A stretch of 64,000 nucleotides of DNA from an uncultured delta proteobacterium (GCA_963727625.1 CAVSHR010000014.1:32889-96888); one strand, 5' to 3'; positions 12,598 to 63,472 are shown, numbered from the stretch's first letter. Numbers and translations are program-made. Notes: a model not told the origin generated them from the letters alone.

Positions 12598-12639
12598 ATG
12601 ATGCGCCGACTCAGCGGCGGTTGCTGTCTAATATTGGAC
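12598..12639 (-). promoter_or_regulatory. Crp-type box (12626-12639) plus -10 CATCAT
   Basis: Minus strand GTCCAATATTAGAC-N22-CATCAT. Confidence 0.75.
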
Positions 12640-12689
12640 ATTCTTGAAAAAGAATTTTCACGCCAATCTCACTTATTATTTACAAAAGC

Positions 12690-12731
12690 GTTCAAAATTA
12701 GACCGTAATCACCACCGCGGCAGGCTAGGGT
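12690..12731 (+). promoter_or_regulatory. Crp-type box plus -10 TAGGGT, upstream of nfeD-floA
   Basis: GTTCAAAATTAGAC-N22-TAGGGT. Confidence 0.75.
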
Positions 12732-12896
12732 CGCTCTGAAGGGAAATAACGGATCATGCGGGCGTGGTTTGCTCGGACCAATCGGCCTCCGGCTGAGCTT
12801 TCCCTATCTATATTTTGATTTATGGGTAGTGAAATTATAAGAAGGGGCGGCAGGATGTGCTATTTAAGAGCGGGACGGTAAAGAGCCGGTGGTATC

Positions 12897-14333
12897 TTGA
12901 TCCGAGCCGACGCTTGCGCCGCGGCAGAAGCGTGCTTCATGCGTGTGATTCAAAATCAAAGCAGATGGGCCGGATTACTGTCGATCGTCGGACTCGGCTT
13001 GATGGCCATGCTGGGATCGAGCGGGTTGGTCTTTGCGCAGAAGCCCACCGTGGTGGTTTACGTCGCGCCGATTGAGGGGATGATCGATCTCGGGCTCGCG
13101 CCTTTCGTTCAGCGGGTTTTAAACGAAGCAACACGAGCAGGCGCCGCGGCGGTCATTCTCGAGATCAATACCTTCGGCGGCCGCGTCGATGCGGCTGTGC
13201 TTATTCGTGACGCTTTGCTGAACGCCCGGGTGCTGACCGTGGTCTTCGTCAACAAAAGAGCCATTTCTGCCGGGGCGCTGATCAGTTTGGCCGCCGAGAA
13301 AATCGCGATCGCCAACGGCGGAACCATCGGCGCCGCAACGCCGGTGCAAATGGGGCAGCCGGGCGCACCCGCGCAGCCAGTGGCAGAGAAGACGGTTTCC
13401 TATGTACGAAAGGAGTTTCGCGCCACCGCCGAGGCGCGAAAGCGTCCTCCGCTTATCGCCGAGGCGATGGTGGATGCGGATGTGGAAATTCCCGGCCTCA
13501 TTCAAAAAGGCAAGCTGCTGACGCTCACCACCGAGGAAGCTTTGAAGCATAAGGTTGCGGATTTTCGCGCCGAGACTATCGATAGTGTATTGGAACAGCT
13601 AGGTCTTGCGGGAGCACAGGCCAGGCGGGTGGCGCCCAACTGGGCGGAGGGCCTTGTCCGCTTCCTAACCGATCCCATTGTCAGTTCGCTACTCATGACC
13701 GTCGGAATGATCGGCATCTTTCTGGAAATCCGCACGCCCGGCTTTGGCTTGCCGGGTGCGCTCGGTATCGCAAGCCTCGGGCTTTTCTTTTGGGGCCATT
13801 GGCTGGTTCAGCTTGCGGGCTGGGAAGAGCTGTTGCTGGTGGCGTCTGGGTTTATGCTTCTGGTCCTAGAAATTTTTGTTATTCCAGGCTTTGGTCTCGC
13901 CGGAATCTTTGGGATCGGCGCGCTCCTCGCCGGCCTTGGCCTGAGCCTGATCGGCGGCGGCGCCACCTGGGAGTTCGTCGCCCTGGCGATGGGGCAAGTG
14001 TTAATTTCAGTCTTTTTGGCCCTCGCGGCGAGCCTCTTGGTGCTGCGTTTCTTACCGCGCCTGCCATTTGGGAGGCAGCTGATCCTGCAAACCGGCCTTG
14101 CCGCGGGCAAGGGGTATGCTTCGGCGCCAGAGAGCGATAACAAATGGCTTGGCAAAAACGGCACGGCGTTCTCGCCGCTGCGACCGGCGGGGATCGCGGA
14201 GATTGACGGTGAGCGTGTGGATGTCGTCTCCGACGGCGAATTCATCGATGCCGGAATGGCGATTGTGGTGACCCGCGTCGATGGCAATCGGATCGTCGTG
14301 CGGCGACACCGCAGCTTAACAGAAGGGAGTTGA
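12897..14333 (+). CDS. nfeD: Long NfeD family membrane-bound serine protease-like protein (YqeZ/NfeD1b type); start probably 12939
   Basis: [21 protein letters not shown] ClpP-like domain, TM region, C-terminal LRPAG...[12 protein letters not shown] fold. Confidence 0.92.
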
Positions 14334-14334
14334 A

Positions 14335-15315
14335 ATGGGTGGTCTCGAAACCGGATTAACCGGCGGTTTCGCGCTGCTATTGATGCTGATCGTGGGGTTG
14401 GTTTTTGTCTTGTACCTGGTCCCCATCCCGCTCTGGATTGCCGCTTGGGCATCGGGGGCATACGTCGGGCTCTTCACGCTCATCGGCATGCGCCTGCGCC
14501 GAGTGCCGCCCGGCACCGTGATCACGGCGCGGATAAGCTCGGTGAAAGCCGGTTTGGACATTCCCCTCAACGATCTCGAAGCCCATTATTTGGCCGGCGG
14601 CAACGTTGTCAGGGTCGTGAACGCCATGATCTCCGCGGACAAGGCGAATATTCCCTTGGTGTTTAAGCGGGCCGCCGCCATCGACCTGGCAGGGCGCGAT
14701 GTCTTGGAAGCGGTGAAGATGTCGGTCATTCCCAAAGTTATCGAAACCCCGAAGATCGCCGCCATCGCCAAAAACGGCATCCAGCTCATCGCAGTTTCTC
14801 GTGTCACGGTCCGCACGAACATTGACCGGCTGGTGGGCGGCGCCGGCGAGGAGACCATCATTGCCCGGGTTGGAGAAGGCATGGTGAGCACCATCGGCTC
14901 CGCCGAATCGCACAAGGACGTTCTCGAAAACCCCGATCATATTTCTAAGCATGTGCTTGGCAAAGGATTGGACGCCGGGACCGCCTATGAGATTCTTTCG
15001 ATCGATATCGCGGACGTCGACGTGGGCGACAACATCGGCGCCAAGCTGCAAATCGATCAGGCCAACGCCGATAAGCAAATCGCTCAAGCCAAGGCCGAAG
15101 AGCGGCGCGCCATGGCCGTGGCTTTGGAACAAGAGATGCGGGCGCGCGTGGTCGAGGCGGAAGCCGAAGTCCCGCGCGCCATGGCCGAAGCTTTTCGCCA
15201 AGGCAATCTCGGCATCATGGATTATTACCGCATGAAAAACGTTCAAGCCGACACGTCGATGCGCGATGCCATCGCGGAGAGCGACGACGATCCGTCGACG
15301 GGCCAGAAACGCTAG
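14335..15315 (+). CDS. floA: Flotillin-like protein FloA (YqfA family)
   Basis: [46 protein letters not shown]. Confidence 0.95.
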
Positions 15316-15340
15316 GCTCAAGTCGCTTTAGGGGATTGTA

Positions 15341-15685
15341 ATGAACAATTTTAGTGTCGGACTGATCATCCTCCTGATGCTGTTCATTTTGATACCGCTG
15401 GCTAATTATGTCCTGAAGCGAATGCAACGGCGATTCGAACAGCCCGGTCCGGCGCGGCAACCGATGCCGGATATGGGCGTCCGCAGGCAGGCGGCGCGGG
15501 TGGCCACGCCCGCATCCGCCGCCCCTCGCGAACGAACACAGGCGGCGCCACCCGACCCCATAGTCGCGTCACCGCGAAGCCGCTGGTCGAGGAAGACGCT
15601 ATTCAGAACCCGGCGCGATGTGCGGCGGGTCATTGTCGCGATGACGGTCCTGGGACCCTGCCGTGCTTACGACCCACCCGGCTAG
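15341..15685 (+). CDS. Hypothetical membrane protein in the YqfB position of the nfeD-floA operon
   Basis: N-terminal TM segment; C-terminal VRRVIVAMTVLGPCRA resembles YqfB-type tails. Confidence 0.6.
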   Translation: MNNFSVGLIILLMLFILIPLANYVLKRMQRRFEQPGPARQPMPDMGVRRQAARVATPASAAPRERTQAAPPDPIVASPRSRWSRKTLFRTRRDVRRVIVAMTVLGPCRAYDPPG

Positions 15686-16603: not shown

Positions 16604-16645
16604 GTCCACTATTGGACAGCAATCATCGCCAAGTCCGCATAGGGT
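16604..16645 (+). promoter_or_regulatory. Crp-type box plus -10 TAGGGT
   Basis: GTCCACTATTGGAC-N22-TAGGGT. Confidence 0.7.
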
Positions 16646-17166
16646 GGCGTGGGCTCGATCTGGTTGATTTCGAGCTTTGCGTATTGGTGTGGAATTTAGC
16701 TTTATATTTTAGGATGAACAACGACTACTGAAACACAGCCCGGAACGAGTATTGGGTTCAAGCCGGCGCAAACAGTACGCCCGGCCTTCTGGCTGGTGCT
16801 TAGCGGCGTGACGCTGTTTCAAGTATTCGGCCAGGGCGACACCATGCAGAAAGCGCGCGACAGTATCTTCGATCAGATTCAGAGCGAGTGTAGGTCGCGG
16901 GTTATTGAGCTCATCCACAGGCAGGAGAATCAGAGTCTACTATTTGGCGTACAAGTATCGACCACAAGTCTTCTCCCCGATCGCGATTGCTTGATCTCTG
17001 AATTTTGTCAACCTTGCGATTTCTCGCCCTCCCATATTGTCAACAGTGAGAAGTCTGAGAACGTAAACGTCGGAAGAATCACGCAATTCCAAACAGCAGG
17101 AACCTTGCATCGAAATTGCTCTACGTAGGTAGACAAAGGGGTAGCCATACCAAGGAGGAGGTCAAA

Positions 17167-17394
17167 ATGAAAAAATTAATGTTGGGGTTGGTGATGCTAG
17201 TTGGTCTTGGTCAAAGCGGTTGCATGTTCTTGGGGGGAGCGGCATTAGGCGCCGCCGGCACAGGAGGCGCTTACGAATATAACGCCCATCAGCAGATGGA
17301 GAAGCTGGACGCGGATTATAAAGCCGAGAGAATTTCTCGCGCAGAATACGACGCGCGGAAAAAACAGATTGAGGCAGGATCGATCATTTATTAA
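17167..17394 (+). CDS. Small glycine-zipper lipoprotein (paralog of 39871)
   Basis: AGGAGG RBS, lipobox-like QSGC, ends GSIIY. Confidence 0.85.
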   Translation: MKKLMLGLVMLVGLGQSGCMFLGGAALGAAGTGGAYEYNAHQQMEKLDADYKAERISRAEYDARKKQIEAGSIIY

Positions 17395-17500
17395 CCGCTC
17401 GCGGGGCTTCGTTGCTCGCATATTCGTTACTTGTTGACTGGTTTATTCGAAGCAACAGGTAACCAAGAACGAGCGACGCTAAAACAAAAGGAGGTAATTT

Positions 17501-17812
17501 ATGGTGCGGGCACTCAAGAGGTTGGCAGTTGCGTTGGCCGTTCTGTTCTTTATGACCGGCTGCCAAGCCATGACCGGTCAGACCGTGGGCGAGAGCATGG
17601 ACGATTCGGTTATTACGAGCTCGGTGAAGACCCAACTCGCAACAGACAAAATTGCCACCCTGACGCGCGTGGAAGTTGAAACCAATAATGGGACTGTCTA
17701 TCTGACCGGCCAAGTCCGGACCGCCGAAGAGAGGTCCCACATTGGGTCGCTTGCGCGCCAGGTAAAGGGCGTCAAACGGGTCGTCAATAACCTGCAAGTC
17801 ATCAACCGTTAG
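17501..17812 (+). CDS. BON-domain lipoprotein
   Basis: MTGC lipobox; DDSVITSSVKTQL, VETNNGTVYLTG, VKGVKRVVNNL. Confidence 0.92.
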   Translation: MVRALKRLAVALAVLFFMTGCQAMTGQTVGESMDDSVITSSVKTQLATDKIATLTRVEVETNNGTVYLTGQVRTAEERSHIGSLARQVKGVKRVVNNLQVINR

Positions 17813-17857
17813 AGCAGACTGGATCAGCGTGAGCGTAACAAGAGAGAGGGTGAAGGC

Positions 17858-18157
17858 ATGAGAACCAACGGTGAATCGAAATTCTCCTACTTGCTTATCG
17901 GTCTGGGACTAGGGGCCATCGGCGGGCTGATGGCTGCGCTGCTCGCGCGCCAAGAAACGCGGGATCTGCTGCACGAACGCAGCAGTAAGACTCTCGATTA
18001 TCTGAATCAGCAGGGGAAGAAGCTGCGCGAGACCGCCGAAGGAATCGTCGAAAAAGGCAAGGAACTCGTGACTCATCGCTGCTGCTCGGATGACGTGGAT
18101 ATGGATGCCGAAACACAGGCCCACCAGGAAGACAAGCGAGAAACATCGGGAGGGTAG
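17858..18157 (+). CDS. YtxH-domain protein
   Basis: LLIGLGLGAIGG..ALLA..ETR followed by a coiled tail. Confidence 0.75.
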   Translation: MRTNGESKFSYLLIGLGLGAIGGLMAALLARQETRDLLHERSSKTLDYLNQQGKKLRETAEGIVEKGKELVTHRCCSDDVDMDAETQAHQEDKRETSGG

Positions 18158-18186: not shown

Positions 18187-18414
18187 ATGAACAAATTCAG
18201 AAGGGTCGTCTGTGGGGCGGCAATCCTGGGTTTCATGTTGGTATCCAGCGGCTGTCCGTGGGGGTATCGCGACGGTGACCGTTGGTATGACAGGGGTGAC
18301 ACTCGCTCCGACAGATATGATCGGGATCGAGATCGGGACCAAGACCGAGATCGGGATTGGACCAGGGATAGGGATGGCGACCGAGACAGTGGATACCCAC
18401 GGCGGGACCGATAG
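18187..18414 (+). CDS. Small lipoprotein with Asp-Arg dipeptide repeats
   Basis: GGAGG RBS, VSSGC lipobox, (DR)n tail. Confidence 0.75.
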   Translation: MNKFRRVVCGAAILGFMLVSSGCPWGYRDGDRWYDRGDTRSDRYDRDRDRDQDRDRDWTRDRDGDRDSGYPRRDR

Positions 18415-18528
18415 GATCTGGCATGAAATCGCCCGCGAGCCGGAGAGGAGACTGCTGAAGAGGCGTGGGGGGAAGAGAAGGGTTGGAGGAGACCGTAGAG
18501 GGTGGATTTGTCGGAAAGGAGTTGGAAC

Positions 18529-18678
18529 ATGGTGTGGACGATTTTTGTGATTTTATTGATCATGTGGGCGCTGGGACTGGTCACTTCGTACACGATGGGA
18601 GGATTCATTCATATTTTATTGGTCCTCGCCGTGTTGATGCTGGTGATCAATCTGGTTCAGGGGCGAAGGGTCTGGTAG
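18529..18678 (+). CDS. lmo0937/DUF5670 family small membrane protein (49 aa, not in ORF track)
   Basis: MVWTIFVILLIMWALGLVTSYTMGGFIHILLVLAV...QGRRVW; AAGGAG RBS. Confidence 0.9.
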   Translation: MVWTIFVILLIMWALGLVTSYTMGGFIHILLVLAVLMLVINLVQGRRVW

Positions 18679-18711
18679 CCGTTTTGGCTTCGTGACCAAG
18701 GAAGGGAATGT

Positions 18712-18939
18712 ATGAGTCTCAAACCGATAACGCTTGTGGGGATCGTTCTGATCGTACTGGGGATCGTAGCTTTCGCGTACCAGGGCATCACCTACACCAG
18801 CCGCGAGAAGGTTATCGACATTGGTCCGTTTCACGCCACCGCCGAGACCCAGAAGACCATCCCGCTTTCACCTCTGTTGGGCGGGTTGGCGCTGGTCGGT
18901 GGAATCGTGTTGGTCGTGGTCGGAGCCAAGAAGGCGTAG
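18712..18939 (+). CDS. DUF3185-like small membrane protein
   Basis: GIVLIVLGIVAFAYQGITYTSREKVIDIGP...TIPLSPLLGG. Confidence 0.85.
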   Translation: MSLKPITLVGIVLIVLGIVAFAYQGITYTSREKVIDIGPFHATAETQKTIPLSPLLGGLALVGGIVLVVVGAKKA

Positions 18940-18981
18940 TTGAACTTGGGGGATTGTCCACCCAATTGGCGACAAGGATAC

Positions 18982-19758
18982 ATGCTGATGATTCAACGGA
19001 CTCCTGGAGCCGACCCGTTCAAAGAGCAACTGCGTGAGTCCTTGCAGCGCGAGGCGGTAAATTCCCGCGCCGTCACGATTGCCCGGCACGCCAACGTCTA
19101 CAGCTGCGGCGACCAAGACCAGACGGTCTACTTCATTGAGAGCGGCCAGATCAAACTGCTCATGCTCTCGCCCGAGGGTAAAGAATGCCTGCTCGCCATC
19201 CACAGCGCGGGAGATATTTTCGGCGAGTTATGTCTATCCGGCTCGGGCTCGCGACCGGAAACCGCCACCGCGATGGAAGAAACGGTTTTAAAGAAAATGC
19301 CATACGGCCAGTTTTTCGAACGCTTGAGCCGGGACGGGCTGCTTGAGGGGTTTGTCAGATACCTGGCCCTGCGCATCGCCGAGCAACAGCAGGTGATCGC
19401 CAATCTGGTGACGGTGGACAGCGAGCAGCGCTTGGGTAAGACGCTGTTGCAGTTGGCGCGCACGCTGGGCAAGAGAGACCAACGGAGCACGCGCATCGAG
19501 CTGAAGATATCCCATGAAGAGTTGTCCGAGATGGTCGGCACGACGCGGCCGCGGATCAGTTTGTTTATGCAACGCTTTCGCAACCTCGGGTTGATGGCGA
19601 GCAACCTGGATCGCTTTCTGGTTGTTGATGAAAAGAAGCTCACCGATTATCTGGCTCGGATTGCCATCGCCCCCGGGCGGGTCTGCGCCCGTCGCAATAC
19701 TTCTATTCAGAATCGTTCAGAATTGGACAGAGATCTCTTGGGAGTCAGGGTAAGTTAA
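18982..19758 (+). CDS. Crp/Fnr family transcriptional regulator (copy 1, C-terminally extended)
   Basis: YFIESGQIKL, GDIFGELCL, R.ETATA, HTH HEELSEMVGTTRPRISLFM. Confidence 0.95.
   Translation: MLMIQRTPGADPFKEQLRESLQREAVNSRAVTIARHANVYSCGDQDQTVYFIESGQIKLLMLSPEGKECLLAIHSAGDIFGELCLSGSGSRPETATAMEETVLKKMPYGQFFERLSRDGLLEGFVRYLALRIAEQQQVIANLVTVDSEQRLGKTLLQLARTLGKRDQRSTRIELKISHEELSEMVGTTRPRISLFMQRFRNLGLMASNLDRFLVVDEKKLTDYLARIAIAPGRVCARRNTSIQNRSELDRDLLGVRVS
19715..19756 (+). promoter_or_regulatory. Crp-type box plus -10 TAAGTT, upstream of DUF3309
   Basis: GTTCAGAATTGGAC-N22-TAAGTT. Confidence 0.72.
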
Positions 19759-19781
19759 ATTGAATAAGGCGGTAACTTCCT

Positions 19782-19931
19782 ATGGGACTGATATTGTTGA
19801 TCGTCTTACTTCTCCTGGTGTTTGGCGGTCTGCCCAACTGGGGATATCACTCCTATGGTTACGCTCCCTCGGGCATCCTGGGGACGATACTGATTATCGT
19901 CCTGATTCTGTTCTTGTTGGGCCGAATTTAA
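19782..19931 (+). CDS. DUF3309 family small membrane protein (49 aa, not in ORF track)
   Basis: MGLILLIVLLLLVFGGLPNWGYHSYGYAPSGILG...LLGRI. Confidence 0.9.
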   Translation: MGLILLIVLLLLVFGGLPNWGYHSYGYAPSGILGTILIIVLILFLLGRI

Positions 19932-20122
19932 GGGTGCTCGGGGTCTCGTAGGGTCTAGTGGCGATACCCACAAAACATCGCCGCAAACCTCTACGAAGGG
20001 TGAACCGAAGGCTTGTTCAAACAAATCGAAATCCATGGACAGCGAGGTATAGCTTTCAACGGCAAGAGGAAAAATCGGTTCAGGTAGTAGCGGAGGTGTG
20101 GCATTTCAACTGGGAGACTCAG

Positions 20123-22144
20123 ATGAAGACATTAAAGCTCATTTTAGTGGCGCTGGCGGTATTTCTACTGCCCAGATACGCCCATGCATTGGATCTCGGT
20201 TCCGTGCGCATCAGCTATTTGGACGGCGAAGTCCAGATGAGGACAGCCGAGACGGGGGATGACTGGGTTCCTGCTGCTGTAAACACGCCTCTGATAGAAG
20301 GGGACGAGTTATGGGTGCCGGAGGGAGGAAGGCTTGAATTCCAGCTCGAGACCGGGACCGCCGTAAGGCTGGACCAGAATTCTGCATTGCAGATCCTGAC
20401 ACTGGACAGGGCTTCTTCGCAGTTTTATCTGACCGAAGGACATGCCTACGTGGACCACAACTCGCCGCGCGGCAACCTGATCCAGATCGACACGCCGGTG
20501 GCGTCCCTGCGCGCCTATGACAGATCAATTTTTAGAGTAGATGTCCCTGACCAATATACCGATGTCTCGGTGTTCTCCGGTTCGGTGGACGCCGAAGGAA
20601 GGTATGGCAGGACGCGGGTGAGCGCGGGACGGACCCTGACGCTCGGAGACGACAGAGACGCGGAACTCGCGCTGAACGGCCGAGCCGATGAGTGGGAAAA
20701 CTGGAACAGGCAACGGGATACGCGATTTGCCTCACGAGGAGACAGTTACCGCTACCTCCCCGATGAACTGCGGGTCTACGCCAGCGATTTGGATGATAAT
20801 GGAAGGTGGGTGCAAGTACCGGAATACGGTTACGTATGGATTCTCAGAGCGGTTGCAGCGGACTGGGCGCCCTATCGGACGGGGAGATGGATGTGGCGAG
20901 GCGGAGATTATGTCTGGATATCCTATGAGTCCTGGGGCTGGACACCCTATCATTACGGCAGGTGGTCCCATGATCCCCGTATCGGATGGTTTTGGGTGCC
21001 GCCGCGGCGGGGCCAGGTCTACTGGGGGCCGGGATATGTCGGGTGGGTCAGGACGGCTAACTACGTCGCGTGGGTGCCGCTTGCACCGCGGGAGATCTAC
21101 TATGGCTATGGCAATTACGGCCCAAACAGCGTGGACCTAAGAAAGCGCAATGTCAGGGAGATCAACATAACAAAAATCACTTATCGAAATGTCCGGGTGA
21201 CCAATAGCGTGACGGTCATCAACCATAATACCTTCGTGACCGGACGGCGCGAAGCGGTCAATGTGAGAGAGAACCCCTTCGTGACCGAGAAAGTAAACAT
21301 CGGCCGGCCCGATATAAAACCAGAAAGAGCGAGCTATGCCCCGGTGGTAAGGACGATCGAGCCTGCCAAGCGGCCGCCGCAGGAAGTCAACAGGATAGCG
21401 GTGAAAGAACTAAAGCAAGAACGGCAGTTGGTGAAAGAGCAGAATCGGTCCGTGATCCATAAGGGTCAGCCGGTAAAAGCCTTGGCCGTAAAGACCGTGG
21501 AGCAACCGAAGAGCCCAACGGAAAAAGTGCAGGAGCGCAAACAGAGGGGCACGAGTGCCGCACCAGGGGAACGCCCCCGCGTGAAGGGCGATGAAAAGTC
21601 TGCAAGCCCCAGCGCAGCCACTGAGACAAAGGAGACTACAGGCCGCGGACAGTCAAGCCGAGAGCCGGCGGTAAAGCAACCGGCCGGCGCTCGTGCAAAA
21701 CCGCCAGAGCGCCAGCCTCAGCCGGAGAAGGGTAAGACCCAAAAAGCCGTGGAAAGCCCCAGAGCAAAGCCCGAGACAAGGGTCGAAAAGCCGGTGAAAG
21801 CCGAGGACAAGCAAAAACCAAAAGCACCTCAAGCAAAGCCCGAGTCCAGAGTGGAACCAAGGGCCAGGAAAGCCGCAGAGGCAAAACAAAAGCCTGGAGG
21901 AGCGCCAAGCAAAGCGCCCGCGATGATCGATAGGAAAGCCGAAAGGCCATCAGGCCCTGTAGAAAAGGCAAAGGCAGCGGCGGCTCCGGCCAAGGCCGCT
22001 GAGGCCAAGGGTGAAGTAAAGGGCGGCAAGCAGACTGTCGCAGAAAAGAATCAATCAAGGGAAGAAAAGAAGGCCACCAAAGATGGGCTGGAAGGCAAGG
22101 GAAAATCCGACGAGACAAAAGAAGAGAAGATCGAGAGAAGATAG
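20123..22144 (+). CDS. Secreted FecR-like plus DUF6600 domain protein with K/E/P/A-rich disordered tail
   Basis: Signal peptide ending YAHA; N.PL.EGD.LW; W/Y-rich WAPYRTGRW..WGWTPYHYGRW repeats. Confidence 0.85.
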   Translation: MKTLKLILVALAVFLLPRYAHALDLGSVRISYLDGEVQMRTAETGDDWVPAAVNTPLIEGDELWVPEGGRLEFQLETGTAVRLDQNSALQILTLDRASSQFYLTEGHAYVDHNSPRGNLIQIDTPVASLRAYDRSIFRVDVPDQYTDVSVFSGSVDAEGRYGRTRVSAGRTLTLGDDRDAELALNGRADEWENWNRQRDTRFASRGDSYRYLPDELRVYASDLDDNGRWVQVPEYGYVWILRAVAADWAPYRTGRWMWRGGDYVWISYESWGWTPYHYGRWSHDPRIGWFWVPPRRGQVYWGPGYVGWVRTANYVAWVPLAPREIYYGYGNYGPNSVDLRKRNVREINITKITYRNVRVTNSVTVINHNTFVTGRREAVNVRENPFVTEKVNIGRPDIKPERASYAPVVRTIEPAKRPPQEVNRIAVKELKQERQLVKEQNRSVIHKGQPVKALAVKTVEQPKSPTEKVQERKQRGTSAAPGERPRVKGDEKSASPSAATETKETTGRGQSSREPAVKQPAGARAKPPERQPQPEKGKTQKAVESPRAKPETRVEKPVKAEDKQKPKAPQAKPESRVEPRARKAAEAKQKPGGAPSKAPAMIDRKAERPSGPVEKAKAAAAPAKAAEAKGEVKGGKQTVAEKNQSREEKKATKDGLEGKGKSDETKEEKIERR

Positions 22145-22311
22145 AAAGCCGTGGAGGTTCCCGTGTGCGGAACTGGCAGGGCGCGCCGCTCGGCCCTCTG
22201 GAATATCATCGTGACTCCGATAATCCTTCGATGCGGAAACGGCCGGGGTGTCATTAAGCATAGCGCGGCGAATCGCGATCCGGAAGATCCCTCCCCTGTT
22301 TGGAACCAAAT

Positions 22312-24665: not shown

Positions 24666-24707
24666 GTTCAATATTAGACTGAAACTATCTCAGCGCCCGC
24701 GTATTTT
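24666..24707 (+). promoter_or_regulatory. Crp-type box plus -10 TATTTT, upstream of the response regulator
   Basis: GTTCAATATTAGAC-N22-TATTTT. Confidence 0.78.
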
Positions 24708-24742: not shown

Positions 24743-25204
24743 ATGGGTAATGCCTGGTTCAGAGGAGAGCCGTTGAGATCAGAAAAAATACTGGTTGTCG
24801 AAGATTCTTTTGATCTTCGCGAGATTCTCGGAAAACTTTTTGCATCCTTGGGATGGGATCCCATCCTTGCCGAGAGCGGCCGGAAAGCGTTGGAGAAACT
24901 CGAGCACGAAACGCCGAAAATTATTCTCCTGGACATGCGGATGCCGGAAATGAACGGCTTCGAGCTCGCGAGAATCCTAAAAACACATCGTGTTTACAGG
25001 AACATACCGATACTTGCTGCCACCGCGTTTCCCGACCACATCGCCAGGCGGCAGTGTCTTGCGGCCGGCTGCAATGATTTCATTTCTAAGCCTTTCTCGT
25101 TTGCCGCGCTCCAAGCGAGTCTTGCAAATCTAGTGTCCGGAGAAAGACCAAATATCGTTCCTGTTCCTTTAAGTGAAAGGCAGCAGCATGAAATTCAGTC
25201 ATAA
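24743..25204 (+). CDS. Single-domain response regulator (receiver)
   Basis: ILVVED, LLDMRMPEMNG, ATA, FISKPF. Confidence 0.92.
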   Translation: MGNAWFRGEPLRSEKILVVEDSFDLREILGKLFASLGWDPILAESGRKALEKLEHETPKIILLDMRMPEMNGFELARILKTHRVYRNIPILAATAFPDHIARRQCLAAGCNDFISKPFSFAALQASLANLVSGERPNIVPVPLSERQQHEIQS

Positions 25205-25421: not shown

Positions 25422-25546
25422 CGACCGTTTGGTCGAAAGTTCCGTCACTTTCGACGAGGTTTCTCCCGCTGCTTAGCCCGACGGGAAGAAAAGTATCCGA
25501 ACAATTAGCTGTCTTCCTCACGAACAGTTGTGGCACAAGGCTTGCG
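25422..25546 (+). promoter_or_regulatory. Enhancer-like element (25422-25457) plus sigma54 promoter TGGCACAAGGCTTGC (25531)
   Basis: CGACCGTTTGGTCGA element; GG-N10-GC promoter 109 bp downstream. Confidence 0.8.
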
Positions 25547-30720: not shown

Positions 30721-30762
30721 GTCCAGTATTGGACAGCAAACCAACTTAACTTGAGCGAGTAT
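30721..30762 (+). promoter_or_regulatory. Crp-type box plus -10-like GAGTAT, upstream of csbD
   Basis: GTCCAGTATTGGAC-N22-GAGTAT. Confidence 0.68.
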
Positions 30763-31629: not shown

Positions 31630-31753
31630 CGACCTTTTGGTCGAGCGATTCGACTCCCACGACGATTCCTTCATACTGGTTGATCCAAAAACTGAATGAA
31701 ATGGTAGGAAATCATAGCCTTTTTGAAACACAAGTTCTGGCACACAACCTGCA
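31630..31753 (+). promoter_or_regulatory. Enhancer-like element plus sigma54 promoter TGGCACACAACCTGC (31738)
   Basis: CGACCTTTTGGTCGA-N5-TCGAC; 108 bp spacing. Confidence 0.8.
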
Positions 31754-33380: not shown

Positions 33381-33504
33381 CGACCGTTTGGTCGACAATT
33401 TCGACGCTTTTAACGAGCGGTTTTTTCGTTTTCCTCTGACAGCTTCAATAACCCTTCGGAAACGCAACGCTTTCCTCGACGCGGGTTTAGGCACGGTTAG
33501 TGCT
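33381..33504 (+). promoter_or_regulatory. Enhancer-like element plus sigma54 promoter AGGCACGGTTAGTGC (33489)
   Basis: CGACCGTTTGGTCGA-N5-TCGAC; 108 bp spacing. Confidence 0.78.
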
Positions 33505-33788: not shown

Positions 33789-33830
33789 GTCTCTTATTGG
33801 ACAGAACTATTTAACTCGACCGGGTATTTT
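33789..33830 (+). promoter_or_regulatory. Crp-type box plus -10 TATTTT
   Basis: GTCTCTTATTGGAC-N22-TATTTT. Confidence 0.72.
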
Positions 33831-33952: not shown

Positions 33953-34579
33953 ATGAATCCATTCAATCGCGCCGCCTCCTGTGCCGTTCTTGGTTTGGCG
34001 TTGACGGTCAGTGCCGGTTGCAGCGACAACATCGCCCTGATCGGCAGACCCGCGCTACAATTGGACCCAGAGGAGATCTTCGCAGAGATCGACCGGGTCG
34101 ATATTTCGTCCCGCCAGATTCATTTGCGACCGGAAAATAGCCGCGACCGGGTGGTCGGTTATAGCACCGATGCCCGTGTGCTTTATCAGGGTCGAGAATA
34201 CTCGATCGCCCAATTGGAAAAAGGAGATAAGGTCTCCATGCAACTGAAACAGGACTCTCGCGGCAACGCCTATACGAATTTGATCCGCGTCCAGGAAAGC
34301 ATCCAGGATCGGAATCAGAGCCGGCGCGGTGATGCCAGTTCAGATTCCAGGCTCCAGATGGTCGACGGGCGGGTGGAGCGGCTGGATTTCCAACGCAGAT
34401 CTTTCGAAATCAGCGATCCGTCCCGAGACCGGGTGATCGTTTCTCTTTCATCCAACGCCCAGAGATCGGATATGGATCGTTTCCGCGCGCTGCGAAATGG
34501 AGATTACGTCAGAGTCGAGGGAAGATTCCTCAATCGTGAACGTTTTGAGTTGGACAGTTTCCTACGGGAGAACCGTTAG
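33953..34579 (+). CDS. Lipoprotein with two small beta-rich (DUF5666/OB-like) domains
   Basis: SAGC lipobox; paralogs at 40107, 52844 and 59267. Confidence 0.8.
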   Translation: MNPFNRAASCAVLGLALTVSAGCSDNIALIGRPALQLDPEEIFAEIDRVDISSRQIHLRPENSRDRVVGYSTDARVLYQGREYSIAQLEKGDKVSMQLKQDSRGNAYTNLIRVQESIQDRNQSRRGDASSDSRLQMVDGRVERLDFQRRSFEISDPSRDRVIVSLSSNAQRSDMDRFRALRNGDYVRVEGRFLNRERFELDSFLRENR

Positions 34580-38942: not shown

Positions 38943-39065
38943 TCATTTCACGACGAGCGAAAAAGTTTTGTTCTCTTTTTTGGCCCGTTTCGCGGCTCTT
39001 TTTTCCATCAGGGTCTTCAGCGGTTTCTTCTTGTCTTGCCTTTTAGTGTCCTTGCCTTTGCTCAT
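38943..39065 (-). CDS. 40-aa Lys-rich basic microprotein
   Basis: AAAAGGAG RBS; MSKGKDTKRQDKKKPLKTLMEKRAAKRAKKENKTFSLVVK; downstream of a predicted Crp-type promoter. Confidence 0.75.
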   Translation of the reverse strand: MSKGKDTKRQDKKKPLKTLMEKRAAKRAKKENKTFSLVVK

Positions 39066-39139: not shown

Positions 39140-39181
39140 ATGATGCGCTTTCTCGGCGACCGGTGCTGTCCAATATTGAAC
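39140..39181 (-). promoter_or_regulatory. Crp-type box (39168-39181) plus -10 CATCAT
   Basis: Minus strand GTTCAATATTGGAC-N22-CATCAT. Confidence 0.78.
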
Positions 39182-39427: not shown

Positions 39428-39552
39428 CGACCCTTTGGTCGACGGCTTCGACTGTTCCGCCGAACCATTTCCCCATTTCCTTCCGGCGCGATCAACAATC
39501 TCTCGCAATATTCAGCCTGTCCCCGAGCGCGGGCACTGGCACGTTAGCTGCT
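39428..39552 (+). promoter_or_regulatory. Enhancer-like element plus sigma54 promoter TGGCACGTTAGCTGC (39537), heading the DUF3309-lipoprotein-lipoprotein-crp operon
   Basis: CGACCCTTTGGTCGA-N5-TCGAC; 109 bp spacing. Confidence 0.8.
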
Positions 39553-40520: not shown

Positions 40521-41201
40521 ATGATTCAAGAGACTCCCGAAGCGGAACGCTTCAAGCTGCAAATGCGCGATTCCTTGCGGCGCGAGACGTTAAACTCTCG
40601 CGCCGTAACGATTCCGCGGCACGGGAATGTATACACCTGCGGCGACCAGGACGAGATGGTTTACTTCATCGAAAGCGGCCAGATCAAGCTGCTGCTGCTT
40701 TCTCCCGAAGGTAAGGAATGTTTGCTCGCCATTCATGGTGGCGGCGATGTTTTCGGCGAGTTGTGCTTGGCCGGGTTGGGCGCGCGGCACGAAACCGCGA
40801 CGGCGATGAAAGCAACCAAGTTAAAGCAAATACCTTGCGCACAGTTCTTTGCGCGCTTAAGCCATGACCGGTTGTCCGAGGGATTCGTGCGCTATCTGGC
40901 GGTGCGCATTGCGGACCAACAGCAGGTGATCGCGAATCTTGTCACGGTGGACAGCGAACAGCGGCTGGGCCAAACCTTGTTGCAGTTGGCCCGCACCATG
41001 GGCAAAAAGGACCCGCGCAGTATCCGCATCGAACTGAAGATCTCCCATGAGGAATTGTCGGAGATGGTCGGCACGACGCGGCCTCGGATCAGCGTCTTCA
41101 TGCAGCGATTTCGCAACCTCGGATTGATCGAAACCAACAGCGATCGTTTTCTCATCATCAAGGAAAGCAAGCTCACCGATTACCTTGCGCAGATCGCCTA
41201 G
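40521..41201 (+). CDS. Crp/Fnr family transcriptional regulator (copy 2)
   Basis: Closely similar to 18982; HTH HEELSEMVGTTRPRISVFM. Confidence 0.95.
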   Translation: MIQETPEAERFKLQMRDSLRRETLNSRAVTIPRHGNVYTCGDQDEMVYFIESGQIKLLLLSPEGKECLLAIHGGGDVFGELCLAGLGARHETATAMKATKLKQIPCAQFFARLSHDRLSEGFVRYLAVRIADQQQVIANLVTVDSEQRLGQTLLQLARTMGKKDPRSIRIELKISHEELSEMVGTTRPRISVFMQRFRNLGLIETNSDRFLIIKESKLTDYLAQIA

Positions 41202-41396: not shown

Positions 41397-41520
41397 TGTT
41401 GTTTTGGTCGAAAGTCTCGACGATTCCGCCGGACTTTCTCACGATGTTTATCGCGGCGCGCCAGTAATCTAACAAGAAAAGCAGCGTTCTCGCGTGACAA
41501 GGTGTGGCACAGATAGTGCT
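41397..41520 (+). promoter_or_regulatory. Enhancer-like element (left arm degenerate) plus sigma54 promoter TGGCACAGATAGTGC (41505)
   Basis: TTTTGGTCGA-N5-TCGAC; same 108 bp register. Confidence 0.75.
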
Positions 41521-43101: not shown

Positions 43102-43102
43102 C

Positions 43103-45564: not shown

Positions 45565-45606
45565 GTCTCTTATTGAACAGCAATTCCCATCGATGCGCTA
45601 TATATT
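45565..45606 (+). promoter_or_regulatory. Crp-type box plus -10 TATATT
   Basis: GTCTCTTATTGAAC-N22-TATATT. Confidence 0.72.
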
Positions 45607-47419: not shown

Positions 47420-47591
47420 GAGCAGGAGATATGTAAGAGGAGTTGCGCGAGAGCGTTGGCTCAACGAGGGCTAGGATGAACATTATGATGTAAAGATTCA
47501 GAAACCCCGGATTGATCGAGAGAAACCGAGATTTATTTCTTGTCATAACAGGAGAGCAGAGCACTGCTTGCCTAGTACAAATTGCGCCTAG
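47420..47591 (+). pseudogene. Decayed C-terminal HTH fragment of a third Crp/Fnr gene
   Basis: EELRESVGSTRARMNIMM*RFRNPGLIERNRDLFLVI...LVQIA aligns to the Crp copy 2 C-terminus. Confidence 0.7.
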
Positions 47592-47635: not shown

Positions 47636-47677
47636 GTTCAATATTGGACAGCATTCCCGCCTGAAATAGAGCACTAT
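47636..47677 (+). promoter_or_regulatory. Crp-type box plus -10 CACTAT
   Basis: GTTCAATATTGGAC-N22-CACTAT. Confidence 0.78.
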
Positions 47678-48071: not shown

Positions 48072-48105
48072 GATTTTAATTGCGATATCTGGGTTAGGCG
48101 TCCAG

Positions 48106-51550: not shown

Positions 51551-51586
51551 CGACCTTTTGGTCGAAGCTCTCGACGCGTTTGACGA
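51551..51586 (+). promoter_or_regulatory. Enhancer-like element with a degenerate associated sigma54 box
   Basis: CGACCTTTTGGTCGA-N5-TCGAC...GACGA. At +109 only AGGAAC is present, without a -12 GC. Confidence 0.65.
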
Positions 51587-51848
51587 GCCTCTCATCGGTC
51601 CATTCTCGGAGCCATGTCATACAAACCGGGCGCAAGCGCGAAGCCGTTCAAGCAAACGAAGGAACAATCTAACTTGGTGTCGCAGTCCTTGGGTTTTTCA
51701 TTGTCGGCGACCACCGACGGAGGTCGCCGCAACGCTTCGCGACCGAGTTGCCTGATAAATCAATCGAAATCCCGCGATTATTGCCGCGCGCCTTTTGCCA
51801 AGCCAATTAATCGCGGTTGCGACCCTCGTACAGTTTCTTTTCAAAGTG

Positions 51849-51890
51849 GTCTAAAATTAGACAGTAATCCGATCAAGGACGGCGCAGGAT
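51849..51890 (+). promoter_or_regulatory. Crp-type box plus -10 CAGGAT
   Basis: GTCTAAAATTAGAC-N22-CAGGAT. Confidence 0.75.
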
Positions 51891-51922
51891 GTAAAGCAAA
51901 CTGATTGCATTCTGAGGTACAG

Positions 51923-52510
51923 ATGGAAACGATAGATAGCCAAACATGGATAATCCTTGCAGTGGTTGTGGCCGTTGCTTTGACGGCGGTGGGAGCCTTT
52001 TTCTACCGGCGTAAGCAGTCCCATACGCTGCAAAAACATTACGGCGCTGAATATGATCGAACCGTGGTTGAGTTGGGGAGTCGCACCAAGGCCGAATCGG
52101 AACTCAAGGCGCGCGAGAAGCGCGTCGAGCGGCTCGAACTTCTCCCGCTGCCGGCGCCGGAAGCGGCGAGATTCGCTCAGGCCTGGCAAGAGTTACAAGC
52201 CCGATTCGTCGACAACCCCAAGGGGGTGGTGGTCCAAGCCGAACAGCTGGTTCGTGAATTGATGGAAAAGCGGGGTTACCCGATGGGTGATTTCGAGCGG
52301 CGTGCGGGGGACATTTCGGTCGATCACCCGGAGGTTGTGGCAAATTACCGGGCGGCGCAGGCGATTGCGGAGCGCGATCAAGGTGGATCGGCGGACACCG
52401 AGGAGTTGCGCAAAGCGGTTGTGCATTACCGCGCCCTTTTCGATGAGCTGCTCGAGGTAAGAGAGCCGAAACAAGAGATCGTCGCAGAGAAGCGCATCGC
52501 GGCGCGATGA
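51923..52510 (+). CDS. Conserved hypothetical membrane-anchored helical protein
   Basis: N-terminal TM; YGAEYDR, W..LQARFVDNP, M..RGYP, TEELR.A.VHYRALF. Confidence 0.85.
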   Translation: METIDSQTWIILAVVVAVALTAVGAFFYRRKQSHTLQKHYGAEYDRTVVELGSRTKAESELKAREKRVERLELLPLPAPEAARFAQAWQELQARFVDNPKGVVVQAEQLVRELMEKRGYPMGDFERRAGDISVDHPEVVANYRAAQAIAERDQGGSADTEELRKAVVHYRALFDELLEVREPKQEIVAEKRIAAR

Positions 52511-52541
52511 TCAAGATAAGGATACCGAGGAGGAAAACAAG

Positions 52542-52746
52542 ATGGACCGAACTTACAAAAAAGTTGAAATCGTCGGCAGTTCAGAGACCAGCTTTGGCGA
52601 CGCCACTCAAAATGCCATAGCCAAGGCCTGCCAGTCGCTGCGCCATGTGGACTGGTTCGAGGTGACCGGAAATGCGCGGGTTGGTTGAAAAGGACAAAGT
52701 CAAGGAATTCCAGGTCACCGTGAAGATCGGCTCTCGGCTTGAAGGC
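52542..52746 (+). pseudogene. Dodecin (flavin-binding) gene, frameshifted near 52668
   Basis: MDRTYKKVEIVGSSETSF.DA..NAI..A..SLRHVDWFEV, then EMRG.VE...VKEFQVTVKIGSRLE in the next frame. Confidence 0.88.
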
Positions 52747-57928: not shown

Positions 57929-58301
57929 TTTGATTCAAAGCGGATGGACGTTTGGCCGCACGGGGAAGAGTGCCACCTCGCGCCACCTCACAAGCCGCGG
58001 ATGGTAAAGAAAAGGGATAGTGATGGCGGTTCGGCTTTCATGGGTTTTGCATTCTTGCAAAACAGCTCTCGTTTAATTGTCAAAAATAACATTCCTAAAA
58101 AGCAAAGCGTAGCAAAGCTGAATAGTTGCCATCATGAAGTAGTTTGCACACAACTTGCGATTAGTCAGTAAACGAGAAACAAACCAAGAAGGTTGCAACG
58201 ACCATAAAATTGAACGGGGAGATTTACCAGTAAGAACGGCGAGAGCCTACGGGCGGCTAGGAAGCCCGAGAGGGCAGGTTTTTTAGGGAAAGGAGTTGCA
58301 C

Positions 58302-58448
58302 ATGCTTTGGACGATTTTTGTGATTCTTTTGATTCTGTGGGCGCTTGGATTGGTCACTTCGTACACGATGGGTGGATTCATTCATATTCTCTTGGTCATT
58401 GCCGTGGTGATGCTAGTGATCAATCTCGTTCAGGGGCGAAGAGTCTAA
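58302..58448 (+). CDS. lmo0937/DUF5670 family membrane protein (copy 2, 48 aa)
   Basis: MLWTIFVILLILWALGLVTSYTMGGFIHILLVIAVV...QGRRV. Confidence 0.9.
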   Translation: MLWTIFVILLILWALGLVTSYTMGGFIHILLVIAVVMLVINLVQGRRV

Positions 58449-58481
58449 CAGCCATTTCGGTTTTAAAAAGGACGGAATTTT

Positions 58482-58706
58482 ATGCGCAATCCATTAACGC
58501 TTGTTGGGATCGCTCTGGTCGTGCTGGGAATCGTGGCCTTTGCATACCAGGGCATCACCTATACAAGCCGCGAGAAGGTTATCGACATTGGCCCCTTCCA
58601 AGCTACTGCCGAGACCCAGAAGACCATCCCACTTTCACCACTATTGGGCGGGTTGGCGCTTGTGGGTGGGATTGTGTTGGTGGTGGTCGGAGCCAAGAAG
58701 GCGTAG
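58482..58706 (+). CDS. DUF3185-like membrane protein (near-identical to 18712)
   Basis: YQGITYTSREKVIDIGPF.ATAETQKTIPLSPLLGG. Confidence 0.88.
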   Translation: MRNPLTLVGIALVVLGIVAFAYQGITYTSREKVIDIGPFQATAETQKTIPLSPLLGGLALVGGIVLVVVGAKKA

Positions 58707-58756
58707 TTCGACTTGGGGCATTGCCCACTAAGTTGTGAGCACAAGGATAGATACTG

Positions 58757-58867
58757 ATGATTCCACCGGTTCTTCAATCTGACCCATTCAAGGAACAATT
58801 GCGCGAGTCATTGCAGCGCGAGACGTTAAATTCTCGTACCGTCAAGATCGCCAAACATGCCAACGTC
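58757..58867 (+). pseudogene. N-terminal fragment of a fourth Crp/Fnr gene (rest deleted)
   Basis: MIPPVLQSDPFKEQLRESLQRETLNSRTVKIAKHANV joined directly to the DUF3309 leader. Confidence 0.85.
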
Positions 58868-58896
58868 ATGTCAAATCAATCGGGAGGTAACTTATT

Positions 58897-59046
58897 GTGG
58901 GACTGATATTGCTGATTGTCTTGATTCTGCTGCTGTTTGGCGGTCTGCCCAACTGGGGTTATCACTCCTATGGTTACGGTCCCTCGGGCATCGTCGGGGT
59001 GATACTGGTTATCGTCCTGATTCTGTTCCTGATGGGGCGGATCTAG
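58897..59046 (+). CDS. DUF3309 family membrane protein (copy 3)
   Basis: GTG start, GGAGG RBS; GGLPNWGYHSYGYGPSG...MGRI. Confidence 0.88.
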   Translation: MGLILLIVLILLLFGGLPNWGYHSYGYGPSGIVGVILVIVLILFLMGRI

Positions 59047-62742: not shown

Positions 62743-62774
62743 GGCAACGCGCGCCACGACGCTGCAAAATCACG

Positions 62775-62804
62775 CCGAGGCGACCGCATGGGCGGTCGCC
62801 TCGG
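62775..62804 (+). other. Perfect 13-bp stem hairpin upstream of the csbD RBS
   Basis: CCGAGGCGACCGC-ATGG-GCGGTCGCCTCGG with no U-tract. Confidence 0.6.
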
Positions 62805-62825
62805 TAGACAAAAGGAGGAACGGCA

Positions 62826-63017
62826 ATGAGTGGAAAAACCGACCAGATCAAAGGGCGGATCAAAGAGACGGCGGGTGTATTAACGGATAACGAGCGCCTG
62901 AAACGAAAGGGAAAGCTCGATCAGGTGGTGGGGAAAGTGAAGGAGACGGCGGAGAAGGCTGTGGATAAGATGAAAGACGCTTTGACAAGCAACAAATCCC
63001 GTGGCCGCGCCAAGTAG
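62826..63017 (+). CDS. CsbD family protein (copy 2)
   Basis: DQIKGRIKETAGVLTDNERL..KGK.DQVVG. Confidence 0.9.
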   Translation: MSGKTDQIKGRIKETAGVLTDNERLKRKGKLDQVVGKVKETAEKAVDKMKDALTSNKSRGRAK

Positions 63018-63178
63018 TAATTTCGCGCCCGGCTGCAATGCTTTGCTCGCGGTGTTGCGACTGCCCCGGATCGGCTGTCCGATCTGTACGCGTCCTACCG
63101 TGAGATTATGAACAGGCGATGTGACGGTTGGTGCGTGCGGTATTACCGACCACACTGCTCACATAAGGAGATGAACAA

Positions 63179-63334
63179 TTGAACCTGACAAAAAACTTGG
63201 GGATGCTCTTGTTGGGCATCTGGCTCATCCTGACAGGCTTACTGCAAGTCATTACCGTTCAAATTCCAGCCATTGGTACGATACTGGCTCTGCTTGCTAT
63301 CGTTGCCGGCGCATTGATTCTGGTAGGTCGGTAA
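63179..63334 (+). CDS. 51-aa two-TM membrane protein (not in ORF track)
   Basis: AAGGAG RBS with TTG start; KNLGMLLLGIWLILTGLL...LAIVAGALILVGR. Confidence 0.78.
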   Translation: MNLTKNLGMLLLGIWLILTGLLQVITVQIPAIGTILALLAIVAGALILVGR

Positions 63335-63430
63335 AACGTTCGATCTTCCGGAAGCACACTGCTTGCCTAGTACAAATTGCCCAGCGCGGCTGCGCCGGCT
63401 TATGGACTGCGCGATATTTGTTTTAAAATT

Positions 63431-63472
63431 GTCTAAAAGTAGACAGCAATCCCATCTGATACAGAGCACTAT
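63431..63472 (+). promoter_or_regulatory. Crp-type box plus -10 CACTAT
   Basis: GTCTAAAAGTAGAC-N22-CACTAT. Confidence 0.75.

Follow-up and report, generated by a model that had tools for sequence, protein, structure and literature searches.

Described bEBP and Crp systems and the island compared with them

In Myxococcus xanthus, the NtrC-type bacterial enhancer-binding protein (bEBP) MrpB binds two upstream activating sequences (UAS) and activates the Crp-family gene mrpC from a sigma-54 promoter (PMC10701913), and the site of MrpC is TGTYN8RAC (PMC4320627). The activation of mrpC by MrpB and the MrpC site had been named by a sequence-only reading of the DNA analysed here, which proposed that a similar cascade controls an island of microprotein and lipoprotein genes, and both are in print in the two papers. 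We followed up this stretch (the window: 64,000 nt, G000:C14:32889-96888), which reaches the end of the 96.9-kb contig C14 of an uncultured soil bacterium (genome G000; 6.6 Mb, 15 contigs). The nearest public relatives are metagenome-assembled genomes (MAGs) titled "Candidatus Binatia" or "delta proteobacterium"; all taxon names used here are record labels. The window carries a repeated Crp-type palindrome and a repeated sigma-54 promoter with an inverted-repeat enhancer at fixed distance. It is somewhat probable that two nested regulons wire the island, a sigma-54 tier acting on the paralogue crp2 and a Crp tier acting on many small envelope and stress genes. Literature searches (DUF3309; Binatia with Crp; the motif strings and DUF5670; Acidobacteria/Crp/CsbD/sigma-54), which did not cover supplements, returned nothing on the motif or the system.

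The proposed wiring resembles the logic of MrpB and MrpC. Both systems would combine a kinase and a bEBP, an upstream activating sequence, a sigma-54 promoter, and a Crp-family regulator with many targets. The site found here, (T/C)GTY-N8-RAC, matches the geometry of the MrpC site (PMC4320627), and the enhancer has two adjacent elements, comparable to the two UAS of MrpB (PMC10701913). In contrast, the kinase-bEBP operon is not adjacent to crp2, Crp is present in four full copies, and small envelope and stress proteins take the place of developmental genes as targets. Neither the enhancer nor its promoter is overlapped by a Crp site, so there is no sign of MrpC-style competitive negative autoregulation. 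The best Crp matches in three myxobacterial MAGs were 23-32% identical (E 8e-9 to 1e-23; Myxococcaceae MAG, 23%); judged against these MAG proteins and not MrpC itself, the Crp studied here is evidently no MrpC orthologue.

For the kinase, the best NCBIfam match was ZraS (E 3.9e-74), and for the bEBP it was AtoC and ZraR (E 5e-158 and 2e-137). The apparent operon organisation, autoregulated with a periplasmic protein first, is likewise that of the enterobacterial ZraPSR and AtoSC systems. None of the equivalog cut-offs of these two systems was reached (ZraS 250 vs 479; AtoS 236 vs 646; AtoC 526 vs 714; ZraR 458 vs 760). Unlike in those systems, the periplasmic first gene varies here (OmpA-like, Gly-rich or DegP-like), and the enhancer sequence is specific to the group studied here. 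With the class II CRP/FNR regulators of E. coli, the Crp tier shares the cNMP_binding and HTH_Crp_2 domains and a dyad near the predicted -41.5 in place of a -35 box, whereas the half-site is GTCCAAT and not TGTGA or TTGAT. The 8-bp GT-to-AC spacing is similar to that of the NtcA motif, GTA-N8-TAC. CsbD and YtxH are linked to Bacillus sigma-B, and the overall gene content (CsbD, YtxH, BON, entericidin-like and small membrane proteins, with SOD and Suf in related genomes) recalls the general stress regulons of Bacillus sigma-B and alphaproteobacterial EcfG. The regulator here, however, would be a Crp-family activator with sigma-54 input, not an alternative sigma-70-family factor.

Crp-type palindrome promoters and the Crp paralogues

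The palindrome (consensus GTCYAATATTRGAC) occurs in the window in 12 strong copies (15.3-22.9 bits) and one weak copy (9.0 bits), 11 of them rightward and 2 leftward:

12626..12639, minus strand: Crp-type palindrome, 22.9 bits; before a 60-aa Cys-rich open reading frame (ORF; 12560..12378)
12690..12703, plus strand: Crp-type palindrome, 19.9 bits; upstream of nfeD-floA
16604..16617, plus strand: Crp-type palindrome, 19.8 bits; heads the co-oriented run lipoprotein-BON-YtxH-small ORFs-crp1
19715..19728, plus strand: Crp-type palindrome, 17.4 bits; upstream of DUF3309 (19782-19931) and FecR-DUF6600 (19958-22144)
24666..24679, plus strand: Crp-type palindrome, 21.8 bits; upstream of a receiver-only response regulator
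30721..30734, plus strand: Crp-type palindrome, 20.3 bits; upstream of CsbD (30829-31041)
33789..33802, plus strand: Crp-type palindrome, 16.3 bits; upstream of a lipoprotein (33935-34579)
34542..34555, plus strand: weak Crp-like box, doubtful, 9.0 bits; upstream of BON (34736-35047) and YtxH-like (35092-35394)
39168..39181, minus strand: Crp-type palindrome, 22.1 bits; before a conserved 40-aa Lys-rich ORF (39065..38943)
45565..45578, plus strand: Crp-type palindrome, 15.3 bits; upstream of a 56-aa membrane ORF (45670-45840) and a LapA-domain protein (45939-46319)
47636..47649, plus strand: Crp-type palindrome, 22.1 bits; upstream of a collagen-repeat lipoprotein (47772-48071)
51849..51862, plus strand: Crp-type palindrome, 20.7 bits; upstream of a 195-aa membrane-anchored protein (51923-52510)
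63431..63444, plus strand: Crp-type palindrome, 17.3 bits; upstream of a second collagen-repeat lipoprotein (63567-63884)

The strict 14-bp pattern GTYYMNWAKTRRAC gave 12 sites in the window (17 strand matches) vs 0.15 expected, but because these very sites had supplied the pattern, the figure is circular; the foreign loci give independent support. The loose form GTY-N8-RAC gave 65 matches vs 56.2 ± 7.1 in shuffles and was not above chance, but 12 of these matches share the far tighter dyad, and GTY-N8-RAC is invariant in the 12 strong sites. The thirteen Crp-geometry promoters listed by the sequence-only reading were recovered as boxes, together with their downstream genes; the loose geometry itself, however, is at chance level, the box at 34542 is doubtful, and those at 12626 and 39168 face the minus strand.

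We scanned 80 loci of other genomes (430 kb) picked solely for encoding a Crp orthologue (77-92% identity). They contained 107 sites of at least 15 bits, distributed over 67/80 loci, compared to a single site in 1/80 control loci (753 kb). The controls were NtrC-family loci from a bEBP search of the contig collection, whose generic matches (41-56% identity) were of no use for orthology. Many of the foreign palindromes lie ~45 nt 3' of the crp stop codon. Genome-wide in G000, 37 positions reached 15 bits, 13 of them on C14 and 12 in the window, which makes up ~1% of the genome; the others are on C7 and at the start of C11. We also scanned 20 relatives (12 same-genus genomes and 8 of other families, including G005, which is flagged as unpublished; as kin, they are not independent). 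Crp and the strict palindrome occurred together in 6 relatives, Crp alone in 1, the palindrome alone in 3 (65-92% complete) and neither in 10, including all 8 other-family genomes. A search of the genome collection for the promoter in an exact 29-nt form matched 16 stretches, each from a MAG labelled Binatia, delta proteobacterium, Acidobacteriota or Blastocatellia. Individual targets recur as well: the 40-aa Lys-rich ORF also lies 3' of a palindrome in L003, the 56-aa membrane ORF stands behind palindromes in L001 and L030, and an ORF homologous to the 195-aa protein does so in L039 and L042.

The window palindromes share a T-rich tract before the dyad, AGCAATC after it, and a -10-like hexamer 22 nt past it. 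At 12626 and 39168 the same flanks occur on the opposite strand, so these two are left-facing promoters and not enhancer parts; 39168, which lies 260 bp from an enhancer, had been considered as part of it and was rejected for this reason. Among 105 unique foreign sites, in locus orientation, the -10 signal appeared at +36 (T 0.57), +37 (A 0.76) and +41 (T 0.74), the T-tract reached T 0.70-0.83 at 4/6 positions of -13..-8, and position -1 was T (0.51) or C (0.40). With the -10 box fixed at +36..+41 and the dyad centre at +6.5, the site would be centred at -41.5 from a start predicted ~7 nt past the -10 box. No -35 hexamer was found at 17 ± 1 bp from the -10 box of the palindrome promoters, and the right half of the palindrome (TTGGAC) was rejected as a -35 box, its spacer to the -10 box being ~21 bp. 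By sequence and predicted start sites, these promoters are built like class II activator-dependent (Crp/FNR) promoters. The extended flanks read AAWTTTTTTCAAA at -16..-3 and AGCAATCC at +14..+21 in the window sites and in L001-L080, across genomes labelled as different phyla, and could represent an UP-like element or the site of a second protein.

Four full-length Crp/FNR-type paralogues are encoded in the genome (18982 and 40521 in the window; C7:138097 and C7:141153), with a mutual identity of 74-86%. The window carries two of them and two remnants:

18982..19758, plus strand: crp1, full-length Crp/FNR paralogue; its 3' extension spans the next palindrome
40521..41201, plus strand: crp2, full-length Crp/FNR paralogue; last gene of a sigma-54-headed run
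47437..47586, plus strand: crp C-terminus remnant, 50 codons, 56% identical to crp2; just 5' of palindrome 47636
58757..58906 (aligned 58751-58873), plus strand: crp N-terminal remnant, 49 codons, 41 residues alignable

Both full-length window copies have the Crp/FNR domains (cNMP_binding and HTH_Crp_2: 1.8e-15 and 1.1e-12 for crp1, 3.4e-12 and 2.4e-14 for crp2), and the recognition helix GTTRPR(I/V)S is common to all four paralogues. The 14-bp palindrome and the association of this motif with crp lead us to infer that a Crp dimer binds the dyad-symmetric site. MAGs labelled Binatia, delta proteobacteria, Acidobacteriota/Blastocatellia, Syntrophobacteraceae and others encode orthologues (77-92% identity), frequently with multiple copies on one contig. 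The protein collection holds 4802 clusters at E ≤ 1e-20, of which the best 120 are 80-100% identical and carry generic names only. No NCBIfam equivalog was reached (best: PtrA 59 bits, NtcA 58, CRP 57 vs cut-offs of 245-300), and the closest solved structures are GlxR and M. tuberculosis Crp (E ~1e-22). The third crp-bearing module of the sequence-only reading, at 58 kb, did not hold up: its crp is the 49-codon N-terminal remnant of a deleted copy, within a decayed duplicate of the 18487-19943 module that has an internal deletion. Crp1-type ORFs (18982-19758; C7:138097-138867) have a ~30-residue C-terminal extension solely because their frame traverses the promoter palindrome of the next gene; crp2-type ORFs stop earlier.

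The Crp paralogues would bind the palindrome (operator GTCCAATATTGGAC) centred at about -41.5 and act by class II activation on a -10 box without a -35 box. The targets would be nfeD-floA, CsbD, DUF3309, BON/YtxH, lipoproteins, the receiver-only regulator and the operon of crp1 itself, with SufB-like, SOD-like and PAS-sensor genes elsewhere in the genome. That crp1 ends the co-oriented run starting at promoter 16604 suggests positive autoregulation. Genes of the window behind these promoters include the following:

12897-14333 and 14335-15315, plus strand: nfeD (NfeD1b_N, E 3.6e-48) and floA (FloA, E 7.3e-154)
17167-17394, 17501-17812, 17858-18157, 18187-18414 and 18712-18939, plus strand: small-gene run of lipoprotein, BON, YtxH-like, D/R-rich lipoprotein and membrane protein
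24743..25204, plus strand: receiver-only response regulator (Response_reg, E 1.8e-24)

Pfam was searched with the first ORF behind 85 foreign sites (out of 106 whose flanks were long enough; ORFs were chosen heuristically, and sites were oriented by a model trained on the window). The results showed DUF5670 (11 cases), SufB (3), Crp (3) and SOD, CsbD, fatty-acid desaturase, PAS-GGDEF, histidine kinase and CarD (2 each), with one case each of receiver, FecR-DUF6600, LapA, MlaC, FtsH and ECF sigma factor; 40 ORFs had no Pfam family. The receiver-only regulator is a recurrent target of the Crp box. In G000 itself, the sites at C11:2500 and C11:5009 precede, by eye, SufB-like and SOD-like ORFs.

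Between promoter 16604 and the first convincing gene (17167) lie ~550 nt (16618-17166), which could be a long leader or a novel RNA. The sole ORF within this gap (16796-17128; GTG start, no ribosome-binding site) is unconvincing. Rfam finds nothing there, and tRNA and Rfam scans of the whole window gave 0 matches.

Sigma-54 promoters, their enhancer and candidate activators

Alignment of orthologous promoters exposed an enhancer with the consensus TCGACC-N4-GGTCGA-N5-TCGAC(-N5-CGNCGA). Five -24/-12 promoters of the window (25531, 31738, 33489, 39537 and 41505) each lie 108-109 bp 3' of such an enhancer, and a sixth enhancer is an orphan:

25422..25546, plus strand: enhancer 25422-25446 and -24/-12 element TGGCACAAGGCTTGC at 25531, spacing 109 bp; before a 41-aa membrane microprotein ORF (25583-25708)
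31630..31753, plus strand: enhancer 31630-31654 and -24/-12 element TGGCACACAACCTGC at 31738, spacing 108 bp; before a 26-aa membrane microprotein ORF (31796-31876)
33381..33504, plus strand: enhancer 33381-33405 and weaker -24/-12 element AGGCACGGTTAGTGC at 33489, spacing 108 bp; before an entericidin-family lipoprotein (33553-33702; Entericidin E 8.8e-07)
39428..39552, plus strand: enhancer 39428-39452 and -24/-12 element TGGCACGTTAGCTGC at 39537, spacing 109 bp; heads DUF3309-lipoprotein-lipoprotein-crp2
41397..41520, plus strand: enhancer 41397-41421 (degenerate left arm, read by eye) and -24/-12 element TGGCACAGATAGTGC at 41505, spacing 108 bp; before a D/R-rich lipoprotein (41613-41795)
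51551..51575, plus strand: orphan enhancer, no -24/-12 element at the expected distance
39597-39746, 39871-40098 and 40107-40505, plus strand: DUF3309 and two lipobox proteins, the first genes of the run behind 39537

Four of the promoters read TGGCAC-N5-(T/C/G)TGC and 33489 begins with AGGCAC, giving GG at -24 and GC at -12 throughout, and the inverted repeat lies within the ~80-150 bp at which an upstream activator site is expected. The enhancer core occurred at 5 sites in the window (8 strand matches) vs 0.04 expected. Of the 8 genome-wide matches to the strict composite, the window contains 5 and the start of C7 another 2; the last lies elsewhere. Across 24 composites from 6 genomes and 12 loci (the window, C7, G004, G015, G017 and 12 crp loci), the enhancer-promoter spacing was 106-110 bp in 23 cases, and 15 composites were found in the crp loci compared to 0 in the control loci. 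The string TGGCACAGATAGTGC also stands behind enhancers in L002, L005 and L023. A one-mismatch enhancer regular expression (2066 matches) was dropped in favour of the strict composite, and the generic sigma-54 pattern (56 matches genome-wide; 14 on contig C4 vs 9 in one order-3 simulation) is weakly informative alone.

These results bear out the sigma-54 promoter that the sequence-only reading had placed at 39537 at the head of DUF3309-lipoprotein-lipoprotein-crp (40521): TGGCACGTTAGCTGCT is present there, the inverted repeat lies upstream at 39428, and the run follows. That reading overlooked the four further enhancer-bearing promoters in the window and the candidate bEBPs outside it. The degenerate boxes it had assigned to the other two crp modules, CAGCAG-N5-TTGC at 17094 and TTGCAC-N5-TTGC at 58144, exist as strings, but neither has GG at -24 or an enhancer ~108 bp upstream, and we rejected sigma-54 control for both crp1 and the module at 58 kb.

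The genome has one rpoN (Sigma54_DBD gene, C6:181555) and 35 bEBP matches, including ~27 full-length genes. Contig C14 encodes no sigma-54 activator domain, in agreement with the earlier statement that the window has no bEBP. At C7:1265, an enhancer with a -24/-12 element heads genes for an OmpA-like protein (1433-2326), a sensor kinase (2439-4187) and an NtrC-type bEBP (4188-5576). This bEBP has orthologues in G004, G015 and G017 (72-79% identical; next-best match ≤47%), each 2.5-4 kb downstream of an enhancer and co-oriented with it. Since Crp and the palindrome are both absent from G015 and G017, which are members of another family, the enhancer-kinase-bEBP unit would be the older one. A paralogue on C5 (bEBP C5:1050090, 67-69% identical) has the same operon layout: C5:1047571-1051478 (L184) encodes a Gly-rich periplasmic protein, a sensor kinase and the bEBP, and 108 bp separate TGGCATCACGATTGC from an upstream near-consensus enhancer in which GGGCGA replaces GGTCGA. 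The C7 and C5 kinase/NtrC-type pairs are candidate trans-acting regulators of the window enhancers.

The first 1.2 kb of C7 (C7:1-1199, contig start) duplicates window positions 51546-52744 at 99.75%, which suggests an assembly break in a repeat and that C7 may adjoin the island. In G004, palindrome-bearing genes directly adjoin the kinase-bEBP operon; taken together with the duplication, this makes the C7 operon probably part of the same island. A 50%-identical homologue of the receiver-only regulator directly follows the operon in G004.

In the proposed first tier, the sensor kinase and its activator (C7:2439-5576 or the paralogue C5:1048350-1051478) would recognise TCGACC-N4-GGTCGA-N5-TCGAC and drive sigma-54 transcription of their own operon and of the five window promoters. 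The targets would be the membrane microproteins, the entericidin-like lipoprotein, the D/R-rich lipoprotein and DUF3309-lipoprotein-lipoprotein-crp2. Envelope stress is the probable signal, since the orthologous operons start with periplasmic proteins (OmpA-like, Gly-rich, DegP/HtrA-like); the DegP/HtrA-type protease included in the G015 operon hints at the same signal. Downstream of promoter 41505 and its lipoprotein gene lies an Mla-like lipid transporter (41944-45517, plus strand; STAS-MlaE, ABC ATPase, MlaD and auxiliary lipoprotein), which may be co-transcribed from 41505.

Relation between the tiers and structure of the island

The run from DUF3309 to crp2 (39597-41201) has intergenic gaps of 124, 8 and 15 nt. 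Scans for terminators and sigma-70 promoters gave nothing above the shuffle level and no such site on the plus strand between 39537 and crp2, and the 124-nt gap after DUF3309 does not form a stable hairpin (z = 0.96). In 11/80 related loci, crp has a co-oriented composite 0.1-2.3 kb upstream; it stands directly before crp in L011 (92 nt) and before DUF3309-crp in L003 and L006. The sigma54/bEBP-to-Crp cascade was therefore upheld in part: the two tiers coexist, crp2 ends a sigma-54-headed run free of intervening signals, and related loci repeat the arrangement, whereas sigma-54 control does not extend to the other two crp modules. A cascade is plausible for crp2, yet the sigma-54 input would be a facultative, lineage-specific add-on to a conserved Crp regulon.

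Several observations weigh against such a cascade. No composite lies upstream of crp in 69/80 loci or of 3/4 full-length paralogues of the genome, and crp is itself the first ORF behind a palindrome in 3/85 foreign cases, so crp often appears to be sigma-54-independent. The C7 and C5 bEBPs are paralogues with similar DNA-binding ends, which makes the cognate one ambiguous. At E ≤ 1e-170, no bEBP orthologue was found in 7 Crp-positive same-genus relatives (G002, G003, G005, G007, G009, G010 and G012; of 12), several genomes being incomplete. The enhancer of G002 and G003, where no orthologue was detected, could be read by another activator. The cNMP pocket of Crp is also, by eye, unlike that of cAMP-binding CRP. 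It is possible, if rather doubtful, that the sigma-54/bEBP and Crp regulons share the island in parallel with no hierarchy, crp2 being transcribed from its own unrecognised promoter (e.g. in the 124-nt gap) and Crp activity being set by a ligand. The loci without a composite and the relatives without a detected bEBP orthologue favour this arrangement, as does the position of crp1 behind a Crp-type promoter; moreover, Crp retains a cNMP-binding domain, so post-translational control is likely anyway. However, the closest crp2 orthologues (L001, L003, L006, L007, L011 and L013) repeatedly keep a co-oriented upstream composite despite differing intervening genes, and the interval from 39537 to crp2 lacks promoter-like and terminator-like signals.

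The Crp tier has alternatives of its own. We consider it unlikely that another factor reads the palindrome, or that the Crp paralogues repress there instead of activating: the motif tracks the Crp orthologue across genomes (~190-fold over control loci), its 14-bp GTY-N8-RAC dyad fits a Crp-family dimer (cf. MrpC TGTYN8RAC; PMC4320627), and a -10 box at fixed distance with no -35 hexamer is typical of activator-dependent promoters, although a site overlapping the -35 region can repress and the conserved T-tract/CAAA element beside the palindrome could serve a second protein. Segmental duplication is evident in the island (47562-48187 vs 63357-64000 at 94.7%, 18487-19098 vs 58259-58867 at 82%, and C7:1-1199 at 99.75%), and the repeated boxes might be its non-functional leftovers. 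This is very improbable, as only two site pairs fall in duplicates, the other sites have unrelated flanks and downstream genes, and genomes labelled as other phyla keep both the motif and its distance to the -10 box.

To our knowledge, no stress regulon has been described for Binatia or for many Acidobacteriota, which are abundant in soil and have few cultured models, if any. We tentatively suggest that this strongly conserved, multi-copy Crp subfamily, with thousands of clusters in soil metagenomes, may serve as a master activator of general stress or dormancy in uncultured Binatia and Acidobacteriota, in the role of sigma-B, RpoS or EcfG, on a modular, self-duplicating island that could be plugged into a resident sigma-54 envelope-stress two-component system. 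The nested regulons would offer testable wiring (a 14-bp operator, a ~60-bp promoter architecture, a fixed-spacing enhancer, named candidate regulators and microprotein-rich targets) and would allow soil metatranscriptomes to be read for a "stress state". The target list is rich in uncharacterised microproteins (DUF3309, DUF5670, CsbD, BON, YtxH and entericidin-like), and several domains of unknown function would gain a regulatory context. If the cascade is true, it would be a second, independent example of bEBP-to-Crp control, so far known from Myxococcus development.

Larger genes of the island have no recognised motif directly upstream: a GH13 branching-enzyme-like gene (22300-24099), a class A penicillin-binding protein (26051-28483), an AI-2E-family transporter with a C-terminal extension (28615-30528) and a GT4 glycosyltransferase (36034-37290). 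In L004, a homologue of the latter stands behind a palindrome. An IS5-like DDE transposase (DUF772 and DDE_Tnp_1; 49714-51090, minus strand) interrupts the island and has 99.6-99.7% identical copies at C9:104929, C4:184612 and C4:193091. Segments 17116-18157, 34725-35301, 39855-40053, 33935-34579 and 40107-40505 are shuffled, diverged duplicates (72-77% nucleotide identity) that encode Gly-zipper-like lipoproteins, BON, YtxH-like proteins and lipoproteins of 130-210 aa.

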